The notes below the pieces were generated by a model, which was not told where the DNA came from, did not search any database, and worked only from the letters and a program-made list of their open reading frames with translations. From Escherichia coli (lineage in GTDB: Bacteria > Pseudomonadota > Gammaproteobacteria > Enterobacterales > Enterobacteriaceae): a DNA stretch of 64,000 nucleotides. How positions within the stretch are numbered: the stretch's first letter is position 1; each line of letters starts with the position of its first letter. The DNA lies in the NCBI RefSeq assembly GCF_044324875.1, contig NZ_CP172185.1; one strand, given 5' to 3'. Positions 1 through 35,790 of this stretch are shown here, piece after piece. The position numbers and the translations under genes are program-made.

Positions 1-666
1 ACCTGAGTTATCTCTGGTCTTTAAGCGCATCGTGTTATCGCGTTGATGTGTTCACCTGACGGATTTTCCAGTCCGTCAGGGCGGAACGTCCGTCTTTTAT
101 CCGGAGGTTCCGATGTTTATTCCACTTCTGTTTCGCGCAGAGATGCGCCTGACACCTTTCTTTCAGCGACTCAGACAACGTCTGTGTTATCCGGTGAGTC
201 GTGTTCATACACAACATCCCTGGTCTTCTCCACAGTTGCGGCACCTTTACTGCACGCCGTGGTTTGTTAACGCCACCGGCAATCTGGCAGTCCGTGCCTG
301 CATTGTTTCCATTGACGGTTCTTTGCGACACTGCTTTGAGTTCCGTGAAGGCTCTCACAGCCGTGAATACCGTTTCTGGTTTGAGGCGCTTCCTTTGTCG
401 GTACTGCGTTTTAACGCTTTTACCGGTCGAATATCCGATCGCCGTACACTCTCTGCTGCCTCCCGTATGGCCGCGCAGCTTACTTCCTTTCGCTATCGCT
501 TCGGTTTGCGCTGAAGCTGTTTGAGGTCGTTATGACCGTCATTTTCTCTACGAGCAGCGTTGTCTGATCGCGCCATTCAGAACGCGATGACAAAGCTGAT
601 TTTTCCTTAACCCGTCCGGGAGCGCTTCCGTTCGGGGAACGGTCTCTCTGTTTCTGGAGATTGTTT

Positions 667-1053
667 ATGGGACTCGATATTTTTTTCCTTGGGCGTGATC
701 GTGTTTGTGTTACCGACGCAGTGGTATCGGTACCGGAAACGCGGGAAGTGGGGTACTTTCGCAAGGTTAACCCACTGATTGCCTGGTTTGAGAAGCATTG
801 TGGACCGCTTGAAAATGCCGTGGAGCGTCCGGTTTCCAGAACGAAACTGGAGGCACTACTGAGCGATCTTGAATGCCTTACGCCGGAGAACTGCCGGGAA
901 TTCTTCCCCACAACAGAAGGATTCTTTTTTGGCTCTCAGGAGTATGACCAGTATTACTGGAAGGATGTTGAGGACGTGAAGTCGTGGGTCAGACGCACGC
1001 TTGATTCGTTTGATTTTGAACGAAAAATACTGTTGCTCTGGGCATGGTGGTAA
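667..1053 (+). CDS. hypothetical protein (island cargo, ~128 aa)
   Basis: ORF track 661..1053 (alternative start at 661, ATG at 667); no recognisable motif; lies upstream of ardA. Confidence 0.3.
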   Translation: MGLDIFFLGRDRVCVTDAVVSVPETREVGYFRKVNPLIAWFEKHCGPLENAVERPVSRTKLEALLSDLECLTPENCREFFPTTEGFFFGSQEYDQYYWKDVEDVKSWVRRTLDSFDFERKILLLWAWW

Positions 1054-1682: not shown

Positions 1683-1884
1683 TGCAAAATGGCATCTGAA
1701 TCGATCGCAGTTTGGCATTCGAATCGATCATGATTTGGCATCCATCTCCGATCACAGTTTGGCATCACAATCGATCACGATTTGGCATGCTTCCGATCAT
1801 TGATTGGCATCCTGCCAGTCACTCCGGGAATTAACTCTTTTCACCACAGTCTCCATTGCCGTGTTTAAACCAGTGGAGACGTCA

Positions 1885-3450
1885 ATGTCCAGAAAGAGAA
1901 AATCCAGGAGCACTATGGAAACCTGTTTTAAGATCCTTCAGCTCAAGTTCGACAAGAAGCTGACTAACCGTTGTATCGGACTGACGTTACACATCAGCGC
2001 CTCAACCGTTTTTGAGGTTCTTGCCCGCTTCAAAGCCTCTTCTCTGTCATGGCCATTACCTGCTGATATATCCCATGACACGCTGGAGAAACTCATTTTT
2101 CCGCCCAAAGACACCTTTGCATCAGAGCTTGTAATGCCTGACATGTTGTACTTCGATACGGAAATGAGAAAACCAGGTGTGACGCGGCAACTGTTGTGGA
2201 TGGAATACAAGGCACAGGCGGGTAACAAAGCGATGGGATACTCGCACTTCTGCCGTTGCTACCGGGAGTGGAAAAAAACGCGACGTCTCTCCATGCGCCA
2301 GGAGCATCGTGCCGGCGAAAAGCTTTTTATCGACTTCTGTGGTCCTACGGTTCCTGTTATTAATCCGGACACCGGTGAGATACGCCGCGTGGCAATCTTC
2401 GTGGCCGTAATGGGGGCGTCCAACTATACCTACGTTGAAGCGTGCGAAGGTCAGGACATGATGTCATGGTTAAATGCCCACAGCCGTTGCCTGACCTTCC
2501 TGGGCGGCGTACCGAAGCTGCTCATCCCCGATAACCTCAGAAGCGCAGTGAAAAAGGCCGATCGATATGAGCCTGTCATCAACGACAGTTATCAGGCACT
2601 GGCTGAGCACTATGGCACGGTTATCATCCCGGCCCGACCACGCAAACCTAAAGATAAACCAAAAGCAGAAAACGGCGTCCTCATCGTTGAACGATGGCTT
2701 CTTGCCCGCATCCGTAATGAAACCTTCCACACGCTCAGGGCGCTGAATGCGCGCCTTAGGGAGTTACTGACAGACATGAATAACCGGCCAATGAAGGGGT
2801 ACGGCAATCAAACCCGTGCAGAACGCTTCCGCATACTGGATGCGCCAGCACTCTCTCCGCTGCCTCTGGCACCTTATGAATACACGGAATACAAAGCTGT
2901 GAAGGTTGGCCCTGACTACCACGTTGAATATGCCCGTCACTGGTACTCCGTTCCACACGAACTGGTCGGTCAGCGTCTGTCACTGAAGGCGGGGCAGTCG
3001 GTGGTACAGCTCTGGCACAAGGGGCAGTGTGTGGCGCAACATCCGCGCAGCACACATGAATATAAACACACAACCAATCCGCTTCACATGCCAGAGCGCC
3101 ACCGGCAGCACGGGACATGGACACCGGAACGCCTGATCGAGCAGGGAAAACGTACGGGCCCGTCCACAGGCCGGGTGGTTGAATCCATGCTGAAGGCAAA
3201 ACCCCATCCGGAACTGGCTTATCGTGCAGTTCTGGGGCTGCTGGCACTTCAGAAAAAATACGGCCCGGAACGGCTGGAAAAGGCCTGTTACGTTGCCCTG
3301 CACTATAACGCCCCTGACAGACGCTTTATCGACAATCTGCTGCGTCACCATCGGGAGAACCTGGAGCTTCCATTATCCCGCCAGGGCGAACAACATCCGG
3401 CATATGCTTCAGAGCATGAAAACCTGCGTGGTCCGGGCTACTACCACTGA
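1885..3450 (+). CDS. istA: IS21-family transposase IstA
   Basis: ORF track 1804..3450; N-terminal HTH-like region then integrase-fold region; start at ATG 1885 or 1915 is uncertain. Confidence 0.8.
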   Translation: MSRKRKSRSTMETCFKILQLKFDKKLTNRCIGLTLHISASTVFEVLARFKASSLSWPLPADISHDTLEKLIFPPKDTFASELVMPDMLYFDTEMRKPGVTRQLLWMEYKAQAGNKAMGYSHFCRCYREWKKTRRLSMRQEHRAGEKLFIDFCGPTVPVINPDTGEIRRVAIFVAVMGASNYTYVEACEGQDMMSWLNAHSRCLTFLGGVPKLLIPDNLRSAVKKADRYEPVINDSYQALAEHYGTVIIPARPRKPKDKPKAENGVLIVERWLLARIRNETFHTLRALNARLRELLTDMNNRPMKGYGNQTRAERFRILDAPALSPLPLAPYEYTEYKAVKVGPDYHVEYARHWYSVPHELVGQRLSLKAGQSVVQLWHKGQCVAQHPRSTHEYKHTTNPLHMPERHRQHGTWTPERLIEQGKRTGPSTGRVVESMLKAKPHPELAYRAVLGLLALQKKYGPERLEKACYVALHYNAPDRRFIDNLLRHHRENLELPLSRQGEQHPAYASEHENLRGPGYYH

Positions 3451-3466
3451 CAGAAGGAACAACAGT

Positions 3467-4222
3467 ATGAGTGATAACCTGTTAAACAAACTGACCCAAC
3501 TGAAACTCCCGGCGATGGCCGGGAGCCTGATACGGCAGCGGGAAACGCCTCAGACCTACGACGAACTGTCGTTCGAGGAAAGGCTGACGCTGCTGGTTGA
3601 TGACGAGCTTCTGAGCAGGGAAAACAGCCGTGTGGCACGGTTGAGAAAAAATGCCGGCCTGAAATACCAGGCAACACCGGAAGGGCTGCGCTATCCGGCC
3701 TCAAGAGGTCTGCGGGCTGAACAGATGAGAGAACTGCTGAACGGCCACTACATAACCCACAGGAAAAACCTGCTGATAACCGGTCCGACAGGATGTGGCA
3801 AGAGCTGGATAGCCAATGCGCTGGGCGAACAGGCATGTCGACAGAAACACAGCGTCCGGTACTGTAGAACCGGGCGATTACTGGAACAACTGGCTCAGGG
3901 ACGTGTTGATGGCAGCTGGCTGAAATATCTGAAACAGTTGCAAAAAATACAGGTTCTAATCCTGGACGATCTGGGGCTGGAACAGTTAAGTAACGCCCAG
4001 TGTAATGACCTTCTGGAGCTCATAGAGGATCGTTACGGACAAAGCAGCACGATAGTGGTAAGCCAGTTCCCGGTAGATAAATGGCATGGTCTGATGGAGA
4101 ACCCAACAACAGCAGATGCCATCCTGGACAGACTGGTACATAACTCACACCGAGTGGTCCTTCAGGGAGAGTCACTGAGGAAAAATCCCCCGGTAGTGGA
4201 AAGCAGCGAAAAAACGCGTTAA
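3467..4222 (+). CDS. istB: IS21-family helper ATPase IstB
   Basis: Walker A GPTGCGKS and Walker B LILDD motifs; ATG 3467 lies 17 nt after the istA stop; ORF track 3224..4222 is an N-terminally over-extended version. Confidence 0.85.
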   Translation: MSDNLLNKLTQLKLPAMAGSLIRQRETPQTYDELSFEERLTLLVDDELLSRENSRVARLRKNAGLKYQATPEGLRYPASRGLRAEQMRELLNGHYITHRKNLLITGPTGCGKSWIANALGEQACRQKHSVRYCRTGRLLEQLAQGRVDGSWLKYLKQLQKIQVLILDDLGLEQLSNAQCNDLLELIEDRYGQSSTIVVSQFPVDKWHGLMENPTTADAILDRLVHNSHRVVLQGESLRKNPPVVESSEKTR

Positions 4223-4300
4223 AAAGCGGTAGAAAAAGTTAAGTTCCCGGTTGATCGAATGGATGCGAATCGCTGATCGGACTTCGATGCCAATCCGTGA

Positions 4301-4627
4301 TCGAATAGAGCGGAATACGCAGCTTCAGAATATGGTTTCAACTGGGCTTATGTTGAAGGTTATCGTCTTGCCCGTGAAGAAGGCTGTGAAGATGCATGGT
4401 ATGCATGGGTTTCTAATACCGGTGATACCTGTTTCGAACAGTTCAGGGAGGCGTGGCTTGGTGGTCCTTATGACAGTGAACTCGAGTTCGCCGCGCAGTA
4501 CGTGGATGAATGCGGTTTTCTGTCAGAGGTACCTGATACTGTTGCACGCTATTTTGATTATGAGGCTTTTGCGCGCGATTTGTTCATGGAACTGGATTTT
4601 GTCGACGGACACGTTTTCCATCGGTAA
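4301..4627 (+). pseudogene. ardA: ArdA C-terminal fragment (no start codon)
   Basis: Frame without ATG translates ...EYGFNWAYVEGYRLAREEGCEDAWYAWVSNTGD...VARYFDYEAFARDLFMELDFVDGHVFHR*, matching the ArdA C-terminal region as I remember it; joins the 1472..1682 fragment across the IS. Confidence 0.55.
4322..4328. repeat. candidate target-site duplication GCTTCAG (right copy)
   Basis: Same 7-mer as 1676..1682. Confidence 0.45.
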
Positions 4628-4730
4628 CTCACAGCCATGAGGGCGCATATAAGCCGTGTACTGGCGGATGTGATTTCAGCATACATTCTGCTGGTTTTTT
4701 TACCGTTGTTGACAATTTTAATCATCGCGG

Positions 4731-5183
4731 ATGAACAACCTGAACTCTGTTGTTCACCGCCCGGAGGCATCGTTCCTTCGGACGGTGTGCTCTTTCATCA
4801 GAAAGAATCAGACAGGGGGTTTTATGTATTCGCGTTTTATTACTGGTTACTGGCATCTTCAGACGCAGTCCGCTTTGCTGGCACATCTCTGTCAGCTTGA
4901 AGGTGAACTGACGATACTTCGCGCCTGGCAACGTCTCGGAATTACCCCGGTGCCGGAGGATGAAGATGAGCCTTCACCACTTTACTCAATTTTGTGGGAT
5001 GTTGGTGAGGCTCTGGGCTGGTTGCTGTATGACCTGGAGATGGAAAATGTTCCTGCACCGGGAACGATTTTCCACGAGGTATTCGACAGGGTTATATCTC
5101 TGGGGTATGAGACTGAGCCCGGTATCTGGGCTGAAAGTATCAGTACCGGAAAGCGCTACGCTGCAATGCCTGACGAATTTTAA
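4731..5183 (+). CDS. hypothetical protein
   Basis: ORF track; start ambiguous (an internal Met MYSRF... is possible); followed by a hairpin. Confidence 0.3.
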   Translation: MNNLNSVVHRPEASFLRTVCSFIRKNQTGGFMYSRFITGYWHLQTQSALLAHLCQLEGELTILRAWQRLGITPVPEDEDEPSPLYSILWDVGEALGWLLYDLEMENVPAPGTIFHEVFDRVISLGYETEPGIWAESISTGKRYAAMPDEF

Positions 5184-5196
5184 TGTTTTCCACATT

Positions 5197-5220
5197 CCCA
5201 CAGGGACTCATCCCTGTGGG
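5197..5220 (+). other. GC-rich palindrome CCCACAGGGA-N4-TCCCTGTGGG, followed by GGGACGGGTCCC and a T-run
   Basis: Perfect 10-bp inverted repeat read from sequence; possible terminator or RNA element between small ORFs. Confidence 0.5.
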
Positions 5221-5250
5221 ACGGGTCCCGGCTTTTTCAGGAGAAATTTC

Positions 5251-5589
5251 ATGAGACCCGATTTGAATACTTTACCCGGAGATTCCGGCTGCAGCGTCTG
5301 GTTCTATGACGGAATGTCTCAACCGCGTCTGCTGGCGGGCAGTATTGCCGGGTTACTGACGGATGTTACGATCACATCGAATTACCGTGGTGACGTCACA
5401 TCTGAAATTCATGACGTGGTGCAGGAGTGGCTTGCGACCGGCAGGGGTAACCTGGCGGATTTAAAGGAAGAACTCTGGTACTACAACCTCTACATAAATC
5501 CGTCGGCAGACGAACTTATGAATGCCAACAGGCGGTATGGCCTCGGACATACCACCAGGCTGAAAGGCTTTATCAATAACGCGGCGTGA
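5251..5589 (+). CDS. hypothetical protein (~112 aa)
   Basis: ATG 5251 preceded by AGGAG; internal start of ORF track 4960..5589. Confidence 0.35.
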   Translation: MRPDLNTLPGDSGCSVWFYDGMSQPRLLAGSIAGLLTDVTITSNYRGDVTSEIHDVVQEWLATGRGNLADLKEELWYYNLYINPSADELMNANRRYGLGHTTRLKGFINNAA

Positions 5590-5600
5590 CACACCGCCAT

Positions 5601-5626
5601 CCCGTGAGGGCTCAGCTCCTCACGGG
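5601..5626 (+). other. palindrome CCCGTGAGG-N8-CCTCACGGG
   Basis: 9-bp inverted repeat upstream of the RBS of the 5665 ORF; the same motif recurs at 6148..6173. Confidence 0.5.
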
Positions 5627-5664
5627 GCTGTTCCCTCGGTGATTTTCATACAGAGAGGAGCAGA

Positions 5665-6102
5665 ATGATGAACGTTAAGTCTGTGACTGAGGTTGACGAC
5701 GCTGTGGTTGCCCGTGTCAGTGAAGTTCTGGAATTCGCATTTCCGGGGCAGAAATTTGAAGTGCTGAAGGTATGCGATTCCGGCGTTTACAACATGATTA
5801 ATGTGTACTGGCTGGACGGCCCGACACAGGCTGAAGTGCGGTTTATCACCCGTGCGTTTGAAGGCAAAAACGGGCTGAGGTTTGTGCACGAATCCCGCGA
5901 ATTCAGTAATGAATTTGTGCAGGAGTGCATTGACCGGCTTCGCCAGAAGTACGGGCATCGCAACGTTCCGCCAGAGGTGACCGTGGAGCGTTACTGGAAA
6001 AACGATCTGTGGAAGATTAAAACAGATCGTTTCCCGGGCACTATTGAGGTTGCCATCAACGAAATGGGGATGGAAACCAGTAAATACCGGAAGGTTGTAT
6101 AA
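5665..6102 (+). CDS. hypothetical protein (145 aa)
   Basis: ORF track; GAGGAG RBS upstream. Confidence 0.4.
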   Translation: MMNVKSVTEVDDAVVARVSEVLEFAFPGQKFEVLKVCDSGVYNMINVYWLDGPTQAEVRFITRAFEGKNGLRFVHESREFSNEFVQECIDRLRQKYGHRNVPPEVTVERYWKNDLWKIKTDRFPGTIEVAINEMGMETSKYRKVV

Positions 6103-6123
6103 CCGGCTGGACTTTTGACGATG

Positions 6124-6147
6124 GCGGAATGTGACAATTCCGCTTTT
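6124..6147 (+). terminator. candidate intrinsic terminator (GCGGAAT-N6-ATTCCGC + TTTTCC)
   Basis: Stem-loop followed by T-run 20 nt after the stop of the 5665..6102 ORF. Confidence 0.4.
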
Positions 6148-6182
6148 CCCGTGAGGGCATTGTTCCTCACGGGACAATGCCC
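6148..6182 (+). other. two overlapping alternative palindromes (CCCGTGAGG/CCTCACGGG and GGGCATTGT/ACAATGCCC)
   Basis: Read from sequence; the two stems are partly mutually exclusive; sits just upstream of the RBS of the 6210 ORF. Confidence 0.45.
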
Positions 6183-6209
6183 TCTTCATTTACCAGAGGA
6201 GCATTGATT

Positions 6210-7187
6210 ATGGCTGAATGGTGCAGAAATCGTTTTGAAATCACCGGTAAGTCAGTCTGTCTTGACGTACTGATTCAGTGGATTGAAGGGAATGATGCCC
6301 CCCGGTACCGTCATGCGATCCAGCAGAGCATACTGCTGTTTCTTGCAGGCTGTGCGGGGATACTGAAACCGGTAAGAACGGTGTCATATCCGCCTTATCC
6401 CGGGCTGGTCAGTCACGGTGCCGGCTCAACAACTGTAGCCAGTCAGGCGTTTGAACAATGGCTGGGATTACTGACCAGGGATGCCTTCCTTGATCACGAG
6501 ACGGTGAAGACAATAGATCGTCTTTATCATCAGACAGGGACAGGCGCTATCCGGTGGAGTAATCTGCCTGATACGGCGAAGGAGATAATCGGTGGTGTGC
6601 TTGCACAACAATATGCTGACTGGTTTGGCGTGGCGGATGTGTATGAACGCCCTGATAACGCCTTTCTCTGGGAGTCGTTGTTAACATTTGCGGAGTATTC
6701 GCAACCCTGTGATATGCTGCAGGTGATGCCAACACGACTGGCCACGGAGCTGAACGGAAGTGGTGGTTTGCTGAAAGGCACCGGAACGACCCGCAGTTTT
6801 TACTGCCGCCAGTTTGGTATGGAGTACCCACTGGGGCAGAATGTCCGGTGGAAACGAACCGGGCTGAGTACGTTGATACTGGAGTTTGATACCATCTGGT
6901 GTCCGCCTTCAGGTGTACTGGTGGGGGAGATTTCGGCAGTGTTTGACTGTGAGGTCCGTCACTGGTACAGCGAGCCGAAGAACGGAATCAGAGGCTATGA
7001 CTGTTATGATGGTGGTGAACATACGGACAGCAATATGGAAGCCGAATGGCCACACTCTGACGATGAGGGGGAGGTCGCGGAGCATGAGCAGCCACAACTC
7101 TGTCTGATCAGGGACACGCAGCCAGGTGAACGCGTCATGGCATTAGCATCAGTCGAGTCCCCGGGGCCAGTAGTAAAAATAGTGTAA
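6210..7187 (+). CDS. hypothetical protein (~325 aa)
   Basis: ORF track 6177..7187; ATG 6210 (MAEWCRNRF...) preceded by GAGGAG; acidic C-terminal tail. Confidence 0.45.
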   Translation: MAEWCRNRFEITGKSVCLDVLIQWIEGNDAPRYRHAIQQSILLFLAGCAGILKPVRTVSYPPYPGLVSHGAGSTTVASQAFEQWLGLLTRDAFLDHETVKTIDRLYHQTGTGAIRWSNLPDTAKEIIGGVLAQQYADWFGVADVYERPDNAFLWESLLTFAEYSQPCDMLQVMPTRLATELNGSGGLLKGTGTTRSFYCRQFGMEYPLGQNVRWKRTGLSTLILEFDTIWCPPSGVLVGEISAVFDCEVRHWYSEPKNGIRGYDCYDGGEHTDSNMEAEWPHSDDEGEVAEHEQPQLCLIRDTQPGERVMALASVESPGPVVKIV

Positions 7188-7196
7188 TGAAACAAT

Positions 7197-7221
7197 GCGC
7201 CACATTTTGTGGCGCTTTTTT
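7197..7221 (+). terminator. intrinsic terminator (GCGCCAC-TTTT-GTGGCGC + TTTTTT)
   Basis: Perfect 7-bp stem followed by T6, 10 nt after the stop of the 6210..7187 ORF. Confidence 0.6.
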
Positions 7222-7268
7222 AATAAATCAGTGATGGCAGAGTTGTTATTGTAAATAACTCTCCGTGT

Positions 7269-10184
7269 TTACTGAGTCAGTTTTTTTATCAGGTCGTGAA
7301 TTTTATCACCTGAAAACTGGGTCATGAAAGTTATCTTTATGGATTTACTGATTTGTTCGAAGAGTTTCTGTGCATGTTTTATTTTATCGCGTTCTTCATG
7401 TCTGAGTTCACGTTTGCCATCAACATTTTTGGTTTCAATAATAAGGTTCAGATAATCACCCTTTGACGTGTTTACAACATAAGCGAAGTCAGGGGAGTAA
7501 GTGTATCCTCCCGCTACAGGAATTTTTATTGAATTTTTGGGGATCTTTGTGAAGACAATGACTGACCTGACCTCACCCTCTGTCATATTGAGTTTTTCAA
7601 GTTCTGAATCATAAAATACTTCTTCAAAAAGATAAGAGTCCAGTGGAGGGCTTGTATTATCCTGTAAAACGCCAAGATCACTTGACAATACATCAGCAAG
7701 ATAACCGCCGTCTGCATTGGTGAATTTCGTGGGATGGACAGTTCCTGATATTACATTATACCCAAGGCTGAATTTACTGAACGAGTTATTAAGCAAATAC
7801 TTGCTGAAACCAGATTTAATTTTTCTGATTGTCTGAATGTTAAGGTATTCAGTTATATTTATGATGTCTTTTATATCACAAAAAACCTTATGCATGGTGT
7901 CATGTTTGACAAAAATAGTCTGTGATAATTTATCAAGGAATTCACGATAGCTCATTGTGTTTATTTTGTGAAAATTATCCTCATCAACACTGAGAATGCT
8001 TTTCGACATTGCCGTATCATTATGGATATAAATTCTTTCAATACGAGTATGAGCACCGGATTTGGTAAATCTGTCTGCTTCTTCCAGCATAAACGCTCTG
8101 AAAAGGGATAAAAACTCACGTTCACTTTTTATTTTATACTCAATCACGACCTTTTGATTGATCAAGTCCCATAGTTCTTTCAGCTCACTGAACTTACCAA
8201 CACGCATTTTAGTGCGTCTTTTTCCATCAGAGGCTTTTTTTATTTTGCCTGGTTTCACTCCTGCAGGAAATGCTGCCGGATATCTGGCTTTTAAGCGGCT
8301 ATAGGCATCTGAATCTTTGAAGTTATCATTATCATCAATGATCTCATCATCAAAAATTTCATTCAAGAGTGTTCTGGAGGAAAGCTCCGGATATTGAGAC
8401 AGGATTTTATCCTTAAGTTCCTGAGTAAACTTACCTGGAACAGTCTCTTTGAAAGAACTATCGTTGATCTCTTTGACAAGAGAATCGACAAAATCTTTTT
8501 CTGTAAAATCAACATAATAGTTGAGGGTAAAATTGCGGTCTTTCACACGACACATGTATTCATTCACCGGAAGACGTAAACCACGCCCTACTTCCTGAAG
8601 TTTAGATGTGGTGCTACCGCTCGAACGGAGCTTACAAATCTGAAAGACATTTGGGTTATCCCATCCCTCACGCAACGTCCATTTAGAGAAAATGAAACGG
8701 CGAGGATTTTCTAAAGACAATAGAAGCTCTTTATCATGAAGGATTTCGTTGATTTCCTGCTCAATTTTATCATCTTTATCACTATTATCTTTTGAAAAAT
8801 AACCACCATGAACAGAAGATATATCCTTAACAGTTTTTTCAAGGTAGTTTCTGTAAAACTCATCTTTTTCTGTTTTTAACAGTTCATTTGCTTCTGCCAA
8901 AACGTATTCTTCGAACTTAGTTTTCAGGCTTCCTGCAATATCATTACCATCACGATAGCCTTCAATGTCATCAATGAAGAAAAGAGTAAGAGGTTTTATG
9001 CGTGGCCTTTGTGTCAGATACTCTTTTTCTAACTTAAAGTGTTCTTTGACAGCTTTACGTATCATGTTATCAGCAAGTGTCTGATCGTAAGAATAGGGGT
9101 TTATCGAACTACCAATTTTTAGCTCAATACCATTACTCAACACTGCTGTATTCTTATTTAAAGCATCAAGAGTTAAATCATGGATCGCACTATGCGTCTT
9201 AGATAGTGATTCACCTTTGGCTAACTTAAAAATTTTTTTATTATTATTTTCGTTCAGTTCAAATGTAGCTTCTTTTCCGTCAGATTTGACCAACTTGAGG
9301 TTGGCATTACCATCACCAACTATATCCTCAATGTATGCATCAATACCTTTAACAAGATCTTCATTGAAGGCATCTACGGCTGTAAGACGATAAACTAAGT
9401 TCTTATATCCTTCACTAAAGGTTGCACCATAGCGGATGATATATTGGGCATTAAATTTTTGAATATGTTCCCATGTCTTTTTACCAGTAGGAAATTTATG
9501 AGGCTCATCAATGATAATGAATGGTTTTATCGCACTAAGTGCAGAAAATGGGGTATCAAACTGATTATTAAGCAAGCCAACATCATAAGTGTCAGTTAAA
9601 GACTTAGAGTTAATCATCCCTGAATTGATCACAAGAATGTGTATATATTTCTTATTGAAATTACTTGCTTCAACAAAATCATGGATAGCTTGAGGCATAT
9701 ACGATTTTGTATTTTTACCCGAACGTTTCTGACTTTCAACAACGTAAGTCTTTAGTTCACGCTCGTAATCATCTCGAAAGTGTTCTTTTATAGCATCGCT
9801 TTTTAAAAAGTTAACGGTTCCGGCTTTGATCGATAGGGTAGGAACAATGATGATAAACTTGTTAATACCAAATGATTTGTTCAGGTCAAAAATTGTTTTG
9901 GTGTAAGTATAAGTTTTACCTGTACCTGTCTCCATAGAAACATCAATTACGTTGCTTTTAGCATCGTAATTATCTTTTGAGTGCTCAATACCATTGAACT
10001 CCTGAACATTTTTTATGTTGTTGTAGTATTGTTGTTCAGATAGATTCAGTTCTGGATTAGCTAACAGGCGAATTGCAACATGATCCGTCTGATGAGGTAT
10101 GGCGGATACAAAGACATTCATTACCGAATCAACGCCAGCCTTTTGATGAGGTAAATTTTTTTCGAATGTGAACCCTTTAGACAT
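7269..10184 (-). CDS. res: Type III restriction endonuclease Res subunit (helicase-nuclease)
   Basis: 971 aa; Walker A METGTGKTYT, DExH-like IIIDEPHKF, C-terminal PD-(x)n-ExK-like SPDFAYVV...IIETK; directly downstream of mod with a 2-nt gap; AT-rich. Confidence 0.85.
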   Translation of the reverse strand: MSKGFTFEKNLPHQKAGVDSVMNVFVSAIPHQTDHVAIRLLANPELNLSEQQYYNNIKNVQEFNGIEHSKDNYDAKSNVIDVSMETGTGKTYTYTKTIFDLNKSFGINKFIIIVPTLSIKAGTVNFLKSDAIKEHFRDDYERELKTYVVESQKRSGKNTKSYMPQAIHDFVEASNFNKKYIHILVINSGMINSKSLTDTYDVGLLNNQFDTPFSALSAIKPFIIIDEPHKFPTGKKTWEHIQKFNAQYIIRYGATFSEGYKNLVYRLTAVDAFNEDLVKGIDAYIEDIVGDGNANLKLVKSDGKEATFELNENNNKKIFKLAKGESLSKTHSAIHDLTLDALNKNTAVLSNGIELKIGSSINPYSYDQTLADNMIRKAVKEHFKLEKEYLTQRPRIKPLTLFFIDDIEGYRDGNDIAGSLKTKFEEYVLAEANELLKTEKDEFYRNYLEKTVKDISSVHGGYFSKDNSDKDDKIEQEINEILHDKELLLSLENPRRFIFSKWTLREGWDNPNVFQICKLRSSGSTTSKLQEVGRGLRLPVNEYMCRVKDRNFTLNYYVDFTEKDFVDSLVKEINDSSFKETVPGKFTQELKDKILSQYPELSSRTLLNEIFDDEIIDDNDNFKDSDAYSRLKARYPAAFPAGVKPGKIKKASDGKRRTKMRVGKFSELKELWDLINQKVVIEYKIKSEREFLSLFRAFMLEEADRFTKSGAHTRIERIYIHNDTAMSKSILSVDEDNFHKINTMSYREFLDKLSQTIFVKHDTMHKVFCDIKDIINITEYLNIQTIRKIKSGFSKYLLNNSFSKFSLGYNVISGTVHPTKFTNADGGYLADVLSSDLGVLQDNTSPPLDSYLFEEVFYDSELEKLNMTEGEVRSVIVFTKIPKNSIKIPVAGGYTYSPDFAYVVNTSKGDYLNLIIETKNVDGKRELRHEERDKIKHAQKLFEQISKSIKITFMTQFSGDKIHDLIKKLTQ

Positions 10185-35714: not shown

Positions 35715-35790
35715 TGGTGCCCGGAGGCGGAATCGAACCACCGACACGGGGATTTTCAATCCCCTGCTCTACCGACTGAGCTATCCGGGC
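35715..35790 (-). tRNA. pheV: tRNA-Phe (GAA), pheV-type, with variant T-stem
   Basis: 76-nt cloverleaf GCCCGGATAGCTCAGTCGGTAGAGCAGGGGATTGAAAATCCCCGTGTCGGTGGTTCGATTCCGCCTCCGGGCACCA; anticodon GAA; located beside yqgA. Confidence 0.9.

Follow-up and report, generated by a model that had tools for sequence, protein, structure and literature searches.

In a 64-kb stretch of Escherichia coli DNA (hereafter the window), we analyzed the 107-nt spacer that separates an LPD29-domain gene (5665-6102) from a DUF1281 gene (6210-7187), both on the + strand and both annotated by RefSeq at the identical locus of E. coli TUM1886. The spacer houses hairpins comprising three conserved helices, one of which excludes the other two, and the pairing of all three is maintained by covariation; the unit carries a conserved U-tract, ends at the start codon and recurs in consecutive intergenic regions. 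Our preferred reading, which we consider somewhat likelier to be right than wrong, is that it represents a modular, bistable, cis-acting mRNA leader with two exclusive predicted folds, placed between the cistrons of an establishment and anti-restriction operon of an integrative and conjugative element (ICE). Judging from these folds, the leader probably gates the expression of its genes, and we propose that it does so by switching.

Two exclusive folds before the DUF1281 gene, kept by covariation

A first-pass annotation, made from the letters alone, had described three inverted repeats in this spacer, all of which are present (Table 1), and had placed the end of the stems about 25 nt before the start codon, in agreement with the 27 nt that we count from 6182 to the ATG at 6210. 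Repeats 2 and 3 are interleaved in the order X-Y-X'-Y', and because no linker separates them a pseudoknot containing both helices is sterically impossible. Thus the two stems, which had been called partly exclusive, are true alternatives, and the pairing of both is kept by covariation. Repeat 2 extends into an 11-bp helix, P1, and repeat 3 into a 14-bp helix, P2, such that P1 overlaps both arms of P2. In a third helix, P3, the sequence CCCUCU (6180-6185) of the 3' arm of P2 acts as an anti-Shine-Dalgarno (anti-SD) segment, pairing with the Shine-Dalgarno (SD) sequence AGAGG at 6195-6199, 8 nt before the ATG, so that P2 excludes both P1 and P3. The extension of P2 to 14 bp, the helix P3 and the recurrence of the module before the preceding genes had all been overlooked in the annotation. 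Folding of 6100-6215, which it had put forward as a check, gave a minimum free energy (MFE) of -47.5 kcal/mol, compared with -29.4 +/- 3.2 kcal/mol for 200 dinucleotide shuffles (z = -5.6; 0/200 as good). This MFE fold contains P1, P3 and a further upstream hairpin, P0, with P2 as the alternative helix.

P0 is the hairpin that had been taken as terminator-like. It has an energy of -11.7 kcal/mol (z = -1.9), lies outside the conserved core and is not flagged by the terminator scan. Moreover, it is missing where the upstream gene is ArdC instead of LPD29, and an upstream hairpin of -8 kcal/mol or better was found in just 57/144 copies of the leader; in strain SCU-106, a single A-U pair has been exchanged for G-C in a compensatory manner. 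P0 is thus not the terminator but an optional accessory that accompanies the LPD29 gene upstream of it; the terminator-like element is P2, the second of the exclusive stems. The description "attenuator-like rather than a simple terminator" is therefore fair for the anatomy, because P2 and its U-tract are terminator-like while the other state masks the ribosome-binding site (RBS), and it finds no support as regards a sensing event, P0 as the terminator or specificity to the 6210 open reading frame (ORF).

To follow the helices through evolution, we collected 76 loci encoding DUF1281 homologues, one genome per species, which gave 69 distinct leaders of DUF1281 genes. At least 15 Enterobacterales genera are represented, including Leclercia, Pantoea, Erwinia, Edwardsiella, Mixta, Cedecea, Yersinia, Xenorhabdus, Serratia, Hafnia, Photorhabdus, Providencia, Proteus and Morganella. 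All 76 loci display the order X-Y-X'-Y', then a T-run, an SD and an ATG, in widely divergent sequences, as illustrated by the X/X' arms CCCGTGAGG / CCTCACGGG, CCCATCGGGG / CCCTGATGG, CCCCTGAGGG / CCTCAGGG and CCCAACGGGGG / CCCCCGCTGGG. Closer to the window, a 40-nt core of the leader is found in 150 of 5,426 complete E. coli genomes and, where plasmids of Pantoea, Erwinia, Salmonella and Klebsiella carry it, retains 88-97% identity; across genera overall its identity is 88-100%, whereas the DUF1281 proteins of these genera are only ~50% identical.

We measured covariation on a structure-blind MAFFT alignment of the 69 leaders (A3) and on an alignment fitted to P1+P3 that holds 147 distinct copies of the leader (A6), using as a control the same columns with slid partners. 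On A3, P2 showed 90.5% of its cells paired (53-61% when slid), a covariation score of 0.474 (0.14-0.19 when slid) and changes on both sides in 8/10 pairs, and the RNAalifold consensus is P2 itself. On A6, whose fitting used the competing helices, P2 still scored 0.399 compared with 0.08-0.17 for slid partners, and P1+P3 scored 0.378 compared with 0.10-0.14, with both-side changes in 15/18 pairs (9/11 for P1 alone). Because the alignments mis-register P1 in Xenorhabdus rows, we added alignment-free tests, in which the arms of divergent copies were paired with their cognate or non-cognate partners. Cognate arms paired far better for P1 (-17.1 vs -8.8 kcal/mol), P2 (-14.2 vs -7.2 kcal/mol) and P3 (-11.8 vs -7.1 kcal/mol), and the complementarity of Y to Y' exceeded that of shuffled sequences (at most 5% as good) in 68/69 DUF1281 leaders and in 67/78 leaders of other genes. 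The check over homologous loci that the annotation had suggested thus shows that P1, P2 and P3 all keep their pairing via compensatory changes, and that P1 and P2 are both under selection.

These data bear on a simpler explanation, static punctuation, according to which fixed intercistronic hairpins or leaky terminators set polarity, mRNA stability and translation level, the second fold being a by-product of SD and anti-SD composition. In line with it, all the helices contain runs of G and of C that look like SD and anti-SD sequences. A by-product of composition, however, would not hold register, and Y:Y' complementarity rises above shuffles in 135/147 copies. Moreover, the P1 loop and the linker that follows P1 covary (AU:35/CG:21; CG:28/UG:15/UA:14) and play no part in P1 or in SD pairing, so that the covariation of P2 is no by-product of P1 and P3. 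Although the energetics described below speak for it, we regard static punctuation as rather unlikely.

Recurrence of the leader before successive genes

Reading the neighboring spacers directly, we found the same motif before the two preceding genes, and the module is thus not specific to DUF1281. We then ran on the window a covariance model built from the DUF1281 leaders (P1+P3; R1) and a broader one (R2). The window holds three to five copies, every one of which lies on the + strand and extends to a start codon (Table 1). The copies at 6136-6212, 5589-5670 and 5185-5253 are solid, the one at 599-669 is a probable further leader, and the degenerate one at 4745-4826 is doubtful. The 5589-5670 copy, which lies outside the seed alignment, has the same X arm (CCCGUGAGG) as that at 6148, together with the P2 arms GAGGGCUCAGC/GCUGUUCCCUC and the SD GAGAGGAG. 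In the 5185-5253 copy, P1 pairs 5196-5206 with 5211-5221, P2 (GGGAC/GUCCC) is followed by GGCUUUUU, and the SD is AGGAG; its P3 is weak, with an SD unpaired probability of 0.57. The U-tracts of these two copies occupy 5638-5649 and 5230-5237, respectively. The 599-669 copy lies upstream of an ardA gene disrupted by an insertion sequence (IS), and its counterpart is the gene at 5713-6099 of locus L001. One more R2 match, at 23034-23103 (14.8 bits, E = 0.012, 27% GC, without P1), was judged false, its U-run and ATG being the most likely cause; the only other match in the window is a reverse-strand echo of P1.

Table 1. Coordinates of the leader, its helices and its copies, in window positions unless a locus is named (E-values are rough)
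Feature	Position	Strand	Details
Inverted repeat 1	6124-6130 / 6137-6143		GCGGAAT / ATTCCGC, then TTTT 6144-6147
Inverted repeat 2 (X/X')	6148-6156 / 6165-6173		CCCGTGAGG / CCTCACGGG
Inverted repeat 3 (Y/Y')	6155-6163 / 6174-6182		GGGCATTGT / ACAATGCCC
P0	6123-6130 / 6137-6144	+	GGCGGAAU/AUUCCGCU, 8 bp, loop GUGACA, then UUUU; in MFE fold
P1	6147-6157 / 6164-6174	+	UCCCGUGAGGG / UCCUCACGGGA, 11 bp, loop CAUUGU, -19.5 kcal/mol; repeat 2 extended
P2	6153-6166 / 6171-6184	+	GAGGGCAUUGUUCC / GGGACAAUGCCCUC, 14 bp, loop UCAC, -26.0 kcal/mol; repeat 3 extended
U-rich tract	6185-6192	+	UUCAUUUA, directly 3' of P2; degenerate here, UUUUUUUU in most relatives
P3	6175-6185 / 6195-6199 plus 6201-6206	+	CAAUGCCCUCU / AGAGG-A-GCAUUG, -13.8 kcal/mol
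Shine-Dalgarno AGAGGAG	6195-6201	+	with the DUF1281 ATG at 6210-6212, as annotated by RefSeq at the identical locus
Leader copy before DUF1281 gene	6136-6212	+	R1 58.2 bits, E = 1.2e-17; R2 54.9 bits
Leader copy before LPD29 gene	5589-5670	+	R1 47 bits, E = 9e-14; R2 44.7 bits
Leader copy before hypothetical gene 5251-5589	5185-5253	+	R1 24.2 bits, E = 8e-6; R2 35.6 bits, E = 2e-10
Doubtful degenerate copy before hypothetical gene 4824-5183	4745-4826	+	R1 12.9 bits, E = 0.07; R2 12.4 bits, E = 0.09
Probable copy before hypothetical gene 667-1053	599-669	+	R2 19.1 bits, E = 3e-4; no R1 match
STAXI/EFASI matches in related loci	L080 2051-2221, 4525-4675; L073 640-804; L022 668-824; L047 1207-1364; L080 2697-2845

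The same holds in related elements. In the 76 loci (469 kb), R1 gave 233 matches at E <= 0.01, ~225 of them on the gene strand, and ~150 of the matches precede genes other than DUF1281 in related ICE loci, such as ArdC-like genes, a gene for a 228-aa methylase-like protein and several genes for small unknown proteins. These copies have little sequence in common with the window copy, yet all three helices are kept. In the Salmonella island SGI-4 (record pSGI4, locus L080), five copies lie inside the 4.7-10 kb operon, where the P2 hairpins are the top terminator-like matches; a covariance-model search of the 18 kb of silver and copper resistance cargo found no leader copy. From the family a consensus emerges, ~60-90 nt long, which consists of a weak YCA, P1 (CC-NNN-GGGGA, loop, UCCCC-NNN-GG), a short linker, the pyrimidine-rich anti-SD, the U-tract, a variable loop, GAGGA, ~8 nt and the ATG, with mean energies of -17.7 (P1), -20.7 (P2) and -11.9 (P3) kcal/mol.

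Recurrence in consecutive intergenic regions is also a property of integron attC sites, a comparison drawn earlier for the DUF1874 motif (PMC5737381), and it could reflect the shuffling of cassettes by an element that acts at the DNA level as a single-stranded structure serving conjugative transfer or recombination, for example an attC-like site or a priming or promoter site of the ssi/Frpo kind. The genes concerned are indeed anti-restriction genes of a conjugative element, and homology between loci breaks exactly at the start of P1. Recurrence is, however, the only trait that the leader shares with attC, whose core sites are absent. Every copy runs up to a start codon and includes pairing to the SD; moreover, G-U cells far exceed A-C cells in P2 (102 vs 13, and 287 vs 60), indicating that the structure is read on the coding strand and hence as RNA. 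Frpo/ssi promoters, for their part, are long hairpins with -35 and -10 hexamers in the stem, whereas the longest stem here is 14 bp, too short for a promoter hairpin, and a promoter scan found no promoter-like site within 6100-6210 or near the leader. An element acting at the DNA level is thus very improbable.

Several observations concern the exchange and annotation of these units. Distant E. coli relatives, in which the upstream gene is ArdC, are alignable from 6147, the first base of P1, onward; with the breakpoint falling exactly there, a gene and its leader seem to be exchanged together as one module. The copies at 5601 and 6148 share an identical arm, CCCGTGAGG, which could support recombination between modules. 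The LPD29 gene has tandem ATGs (ATGATG, 5665/5668), of which RefSeq takes the first as the start and the covariance-model start columns the second. In SGI-4, the first leader copy is followed by a ~112-codon frame (L080 4802-5140) that is not in the PLSDB gene table, which lists there a short minus-strand "hypothetical protein"; the leader may therefore mark a missed gene. Finally, a 2.6-kb contig from an Actinomycetes metagenome bin (L065, JAEZKH010000258.1) carries a leader and DUF1281 start near-identical to those of E. coli RM11911, and is probably a mis-binned enterobacterial contig.

A proposed switch and the search for its trigger

By its stem and U-tract, P2 has the features of an intrinsic terminator, and termination is predicted. 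It is the best terminator-like match of the window region in the terminator scan (14 pairs, -26.0 kcal/mol), and throughout the family it is a GC-rich hairpin of 9-15 bp with a U-tract directly 3', at least five U being present within 8 nt of P2 in 119/147 copies. The U residues are conserved at 0.71-0.89 in five columns, compared with 0.36-0.54 for the A residues with which they could pair, and because U is better conserved than its partner A, a terminator-type or protein-binding role for the tract is favored over mere pairing in P3. In a comparison with fourU-type thermometers, in which pairing of a U-run to the SD is only marginally stable and is lost at 37-42 C, the U-run was found to pair with an A-run beside the SD in some copies and to lie within the P3 loop in many. 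P3, in turn, is in the stable fold a helix that masks the SD, whose core is paired in the MFE structure of 126/147 copies, and translational masking is predicted as well. The stretch GAGGGCAUUG at 6153-6162 resembles the true ribosome-binding region GAGGAGCAUUG at 6196-6206, and because the 5' arm and loop of P1 thus mimic that region, the anti-SD is able to pair with either the mimic or the real SD. In silico, P2 as the alternative fold takes up the anti-SD and frees the SD.

Based on these folds, we infer an order of folding, a termination step, translational masking and the existence of a trigger, in the following model. State 1 (P1+P3) would be an antiterminator with a masked RBS, and state 2 (P2) a terminator-like hairpin holding the anti-SD. 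P1 would form first during transcription and lock the SD mimic; by taking up the 5' arm of P2, it would keep P2 and the U-tract from acting, allowing the polymerase to read through, after which the anti-SD would pair with the SD in P3 and yield a read-through transcript with its RBS masked. Were P1 prevented or opened, P2 would form instead, leading to termination at the U-tract if this occurs during synthesis, or to sequestration of the anti-SD and exposure of the SD if it occurs afterward. In a transcript truncated ahead of the SD, P2 has the lower energy of the two competing helices, P1 and P2, in 108/147 copies. A bolder version, which we put forward only tentatively, is that the leader is an undescribed class of modular riboregulator, in which a relay of RBS mimic, anti-RBS and RBS is joined to a conditional terminator and stands ahead of every gene in the establishment and anti-defense operon of a family of enterobacterial ICEs. 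All copies would answer to one shared signal, possibly tied to STAXI, the RNA at the operon head, or to entry into a new host, and a single input could in this way control both read-through and translation across the entire operon, one gene after another.

A number of results weigh against the switch, and the energetic ones favor static punctuation instead. For the full-length leader, P1+P3 is energetically favored over P2 in 134/147 copies, by a mean of 7.2 kcal/mol, the two states lying within 3 kcal/mol of each other in 28 copies. The computed barrier for refolding from P1 to P2 is high because the two helices cross, at ~21 kcal/mol (findpath, nested structures), which is an upper bound given that pseudoknotted intermediates are ignored. 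P2 might thus rarely form, and both states as modeled look "off." The U-tract could instead be a ribosome-standby or protein-binding site, and that of the window copy, where UUCAUUU trails P2, is degenerate, although with 5/8 U it passes the terminator scan. The MAFFT alignments (A3, A4) and the covariance-model alignments (A5, A6) shift P1 by one column in ~40 Xenorhabdus rows, leaving the counts for P1 imperfect, and the E-values of R1 and R2 are rough, owing to a shortened calibration. Moreover, we found no trigger, as static punctuation would have it: there is no conserved short ORF in the relatives that could encode a leader peptide, and no ligand-like pocket, the unpaired conservation being confined to the weak YCA before P1.

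Nor did a 27-sequence Xenorhabdus alignment, extended 150 nt further upstream, reveal an extra conserved helix competing with P1. A 28-codon frame (6121-6207; ATG at 6121, TGA at 6205-6207) runs across the whole window leader, its stop codon lying 2 nt ahead of the DUF1281 start; no obvious SD precedes the frame, its ATG is not conserved in the relatives, and it is probably fortuitous.

The position of every copy between cistrons, ending at a start codon, and a topology like that of four-segment translational attenuators could be explained if the leader were a relay for translational coupling, in which a ribosome terminating on the upstream gene melts P1, so that P2 forms and the next SD is freed, each gene thereby being translated only if the one before it is. 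Some copies do have a stop codon 5-12 nt before P1. Stop codons within 12 nt of P1 are nevertheless found in 0/62 DUF1281 leaders and 5/56 other copies, the median distance being 29 and 34 nt, respectively, so that a terminating ribosome would mostly miss P1. In addition, the first copy of each operon follows STAXI with no cistron close by, and in SGI-4 the previous gene ends 286 nt upstream. Melting of P1 by the upstream ribosome is thus unlikely as a general mechanism, and a coupling relay appears quite improbable.

The preferred reading of a bistable leader can also be held with its trigger named, if one factor binds P1 or the anti-SD-like C-rich arms at all copies and thereby controls antitermination or activation, setting read-through or translation for the operon as a whole, be it an RNA-binding protein encoded by the element or the host, or the SD-like loops of STAXI. 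The features shared by the copies (CC..GGGGA..UCCCC..GG, the pyrimidine-rich anti-SD and the U-tract) are consistent with such a common factor, and in four loci a STAXI with conserved CUGAGAGGA loops precedes the first copy. On the other hand, P1 sequences are very different among copies, STAXI-leader duplex energies were no better than those of shuffled STAXI (z +1.0 to -2.8), and the window has leaders yet no STAXI match in the Rfam search. We therefore consider a common factor of this type unlikely.

Comparison with known RNAs and genomic surroundings

We searched Rfam 15 and obtained no match for the leaders beyond chance level, whether at E <= 1 (4000-8000), at the gathering score (whole window) or at E <= 10 (4700-6230), the unmatched families including STAXI (RF01728), radC (RF01754) and EFASI (RF02957). 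Related loci, searched as well, yielded no family for the leader either, STAXI and EFASI being close by yet distinct from it. We likewise found no description of the leader in the literature on DUF1281, STAXI, leading-region/Frpo elements and RNA structures of ICEs. The leader seems to belong to a known kind of cis-regulatory RNA but to be a variant not yet described, and what sets it apart is the repetition of the module ahead of one gene after another in ICE establishment operons.

The terminator/antiterminator platforms comprise trp-type attenuators and "on" riboswitches such as pbuE, in which a 5' helix blocks invasion by the terminator. As in these, an upstream helix of the leader shares the 5' arm of a GC-rich hairpin with a U-tract next to it, the two being exclusive and both conserved. 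In the leader, by contrast, neither an aptamer nor a leader peptide nor a known protein site is present, the anti-SD doubles as the 3' arm of the terminator-like hairpin, and the unit stands before each gene of the operon and not once per 5' untranslated region. P2 resembles ordinary intrinsic terminators as a GC-rich hairpin with a U-tract directly behind, but it is internal to an operon, no promoter follows it, P1 pre-empts its formation, and its 3' arm pairs with the SD of the next gene. The end of the operon has a separate likely terminator, at 7197-7215 in the window and at 9990-10009 in SGI-4 (L080).

The four-segment attenuators of ermC and cat have two off-state hairpins, the second of which holds the SD, and an alternative helix that frees it, as proposed here. 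In ermC, however, segments 2 and 3 form the alternative helix (2:3) once a ribosome stalls on the leader peptide of segment 1, whereas here segment 2 is looped out and the 5' arm of hairpin 2 pairs with the 5' arm and loop of P1. The leader also differs from both in lacking a conserved leader ORF, and upstream stop codons are at least 13 nt from P1 in all 62 DUF1281 leaders. In the mRNAs of lambda cIII and of the MS2 maturation gene, alternative structures and delayed folding control translation. There too, two conformers of the leader set access to the SD and folding kinetics may matter, but these are single loci without a terminator-like conformer or modular repetition.

A neighbor in the genome is STAXI (PMC2864571), which occurs in the same regions of enterobacterial ICEs, with anti-restriction, integrase and DNA-handling genes, and likewise has repeated units, interleaved pairing and an SD-like sequence. 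It differs in that its units are capped by UUCG and form a single tandem array, whose end is not at a start codon; the leaders have no STAXI match even at E <= 10, and the leader model has none on STAXI. In four related loci STAXI lies directly upstream of the first leader copy, and in SGI-4 EFASI is nearby (Table 1). A promoter-like TTGAAA-18-TATTAT (L080 4482-4511) lies just before one STAXI, which may therefore be the 5' leader of the operon transcript.

The genes behind the leaders (ArdA, ArdC, LPD29-domain, DUF1281 and an orphan methylase) are of the kind needed by a conjugative element entering a new host. If the preferred reading of a bistable leader is correct, its repetition would add a new layer of control to the establishment of such elements; one carrier, SGI-4, confers copper and silver resistance. 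The leader would also be a functional neighbor, in the same operons, of the long-unexplained STAXI and EFASI motifs. Its design is compact and modular, one segment serving both as an arm of the terminator-like hairpin and as anti-SD while a decoy of the RBS is locked in a hairpin. If the leader is instead static punctuation, it would still display clean and strong covariation in a short intercistronic element unlisted in earlier motif screens of the neighborhood.

The NCBIfam search gave almost no names for the small proteins of the neighborhood. Compared with E. coli TUM1886, the window carries a 2,639-bp insertion (1683-4321) whose junction shows a 7-bp overlap that is probably a target duplication. 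The insertion contains what we take, from reading the sequence, to be istA/istB ORFs like those of the IS21 family, and it splits the anti-restriction gene ardA, leaving a C-terminal remnant that ends near 4626. At 7197-7215, between the DUF1281 gene and a convergent type III restriction endonuclease gene (7269-10184, minus strand), lies a perfect 8-bp hairpin (GCGCCACATTTTGTGGCGC) with T-runs on both strands, which is likely a bidirectional terminator at the true end of the operon. A tRNA gene at 35718-35790 on the minus strand, the sole Rfam match at gathering level in the window, may be the integration site of the island.

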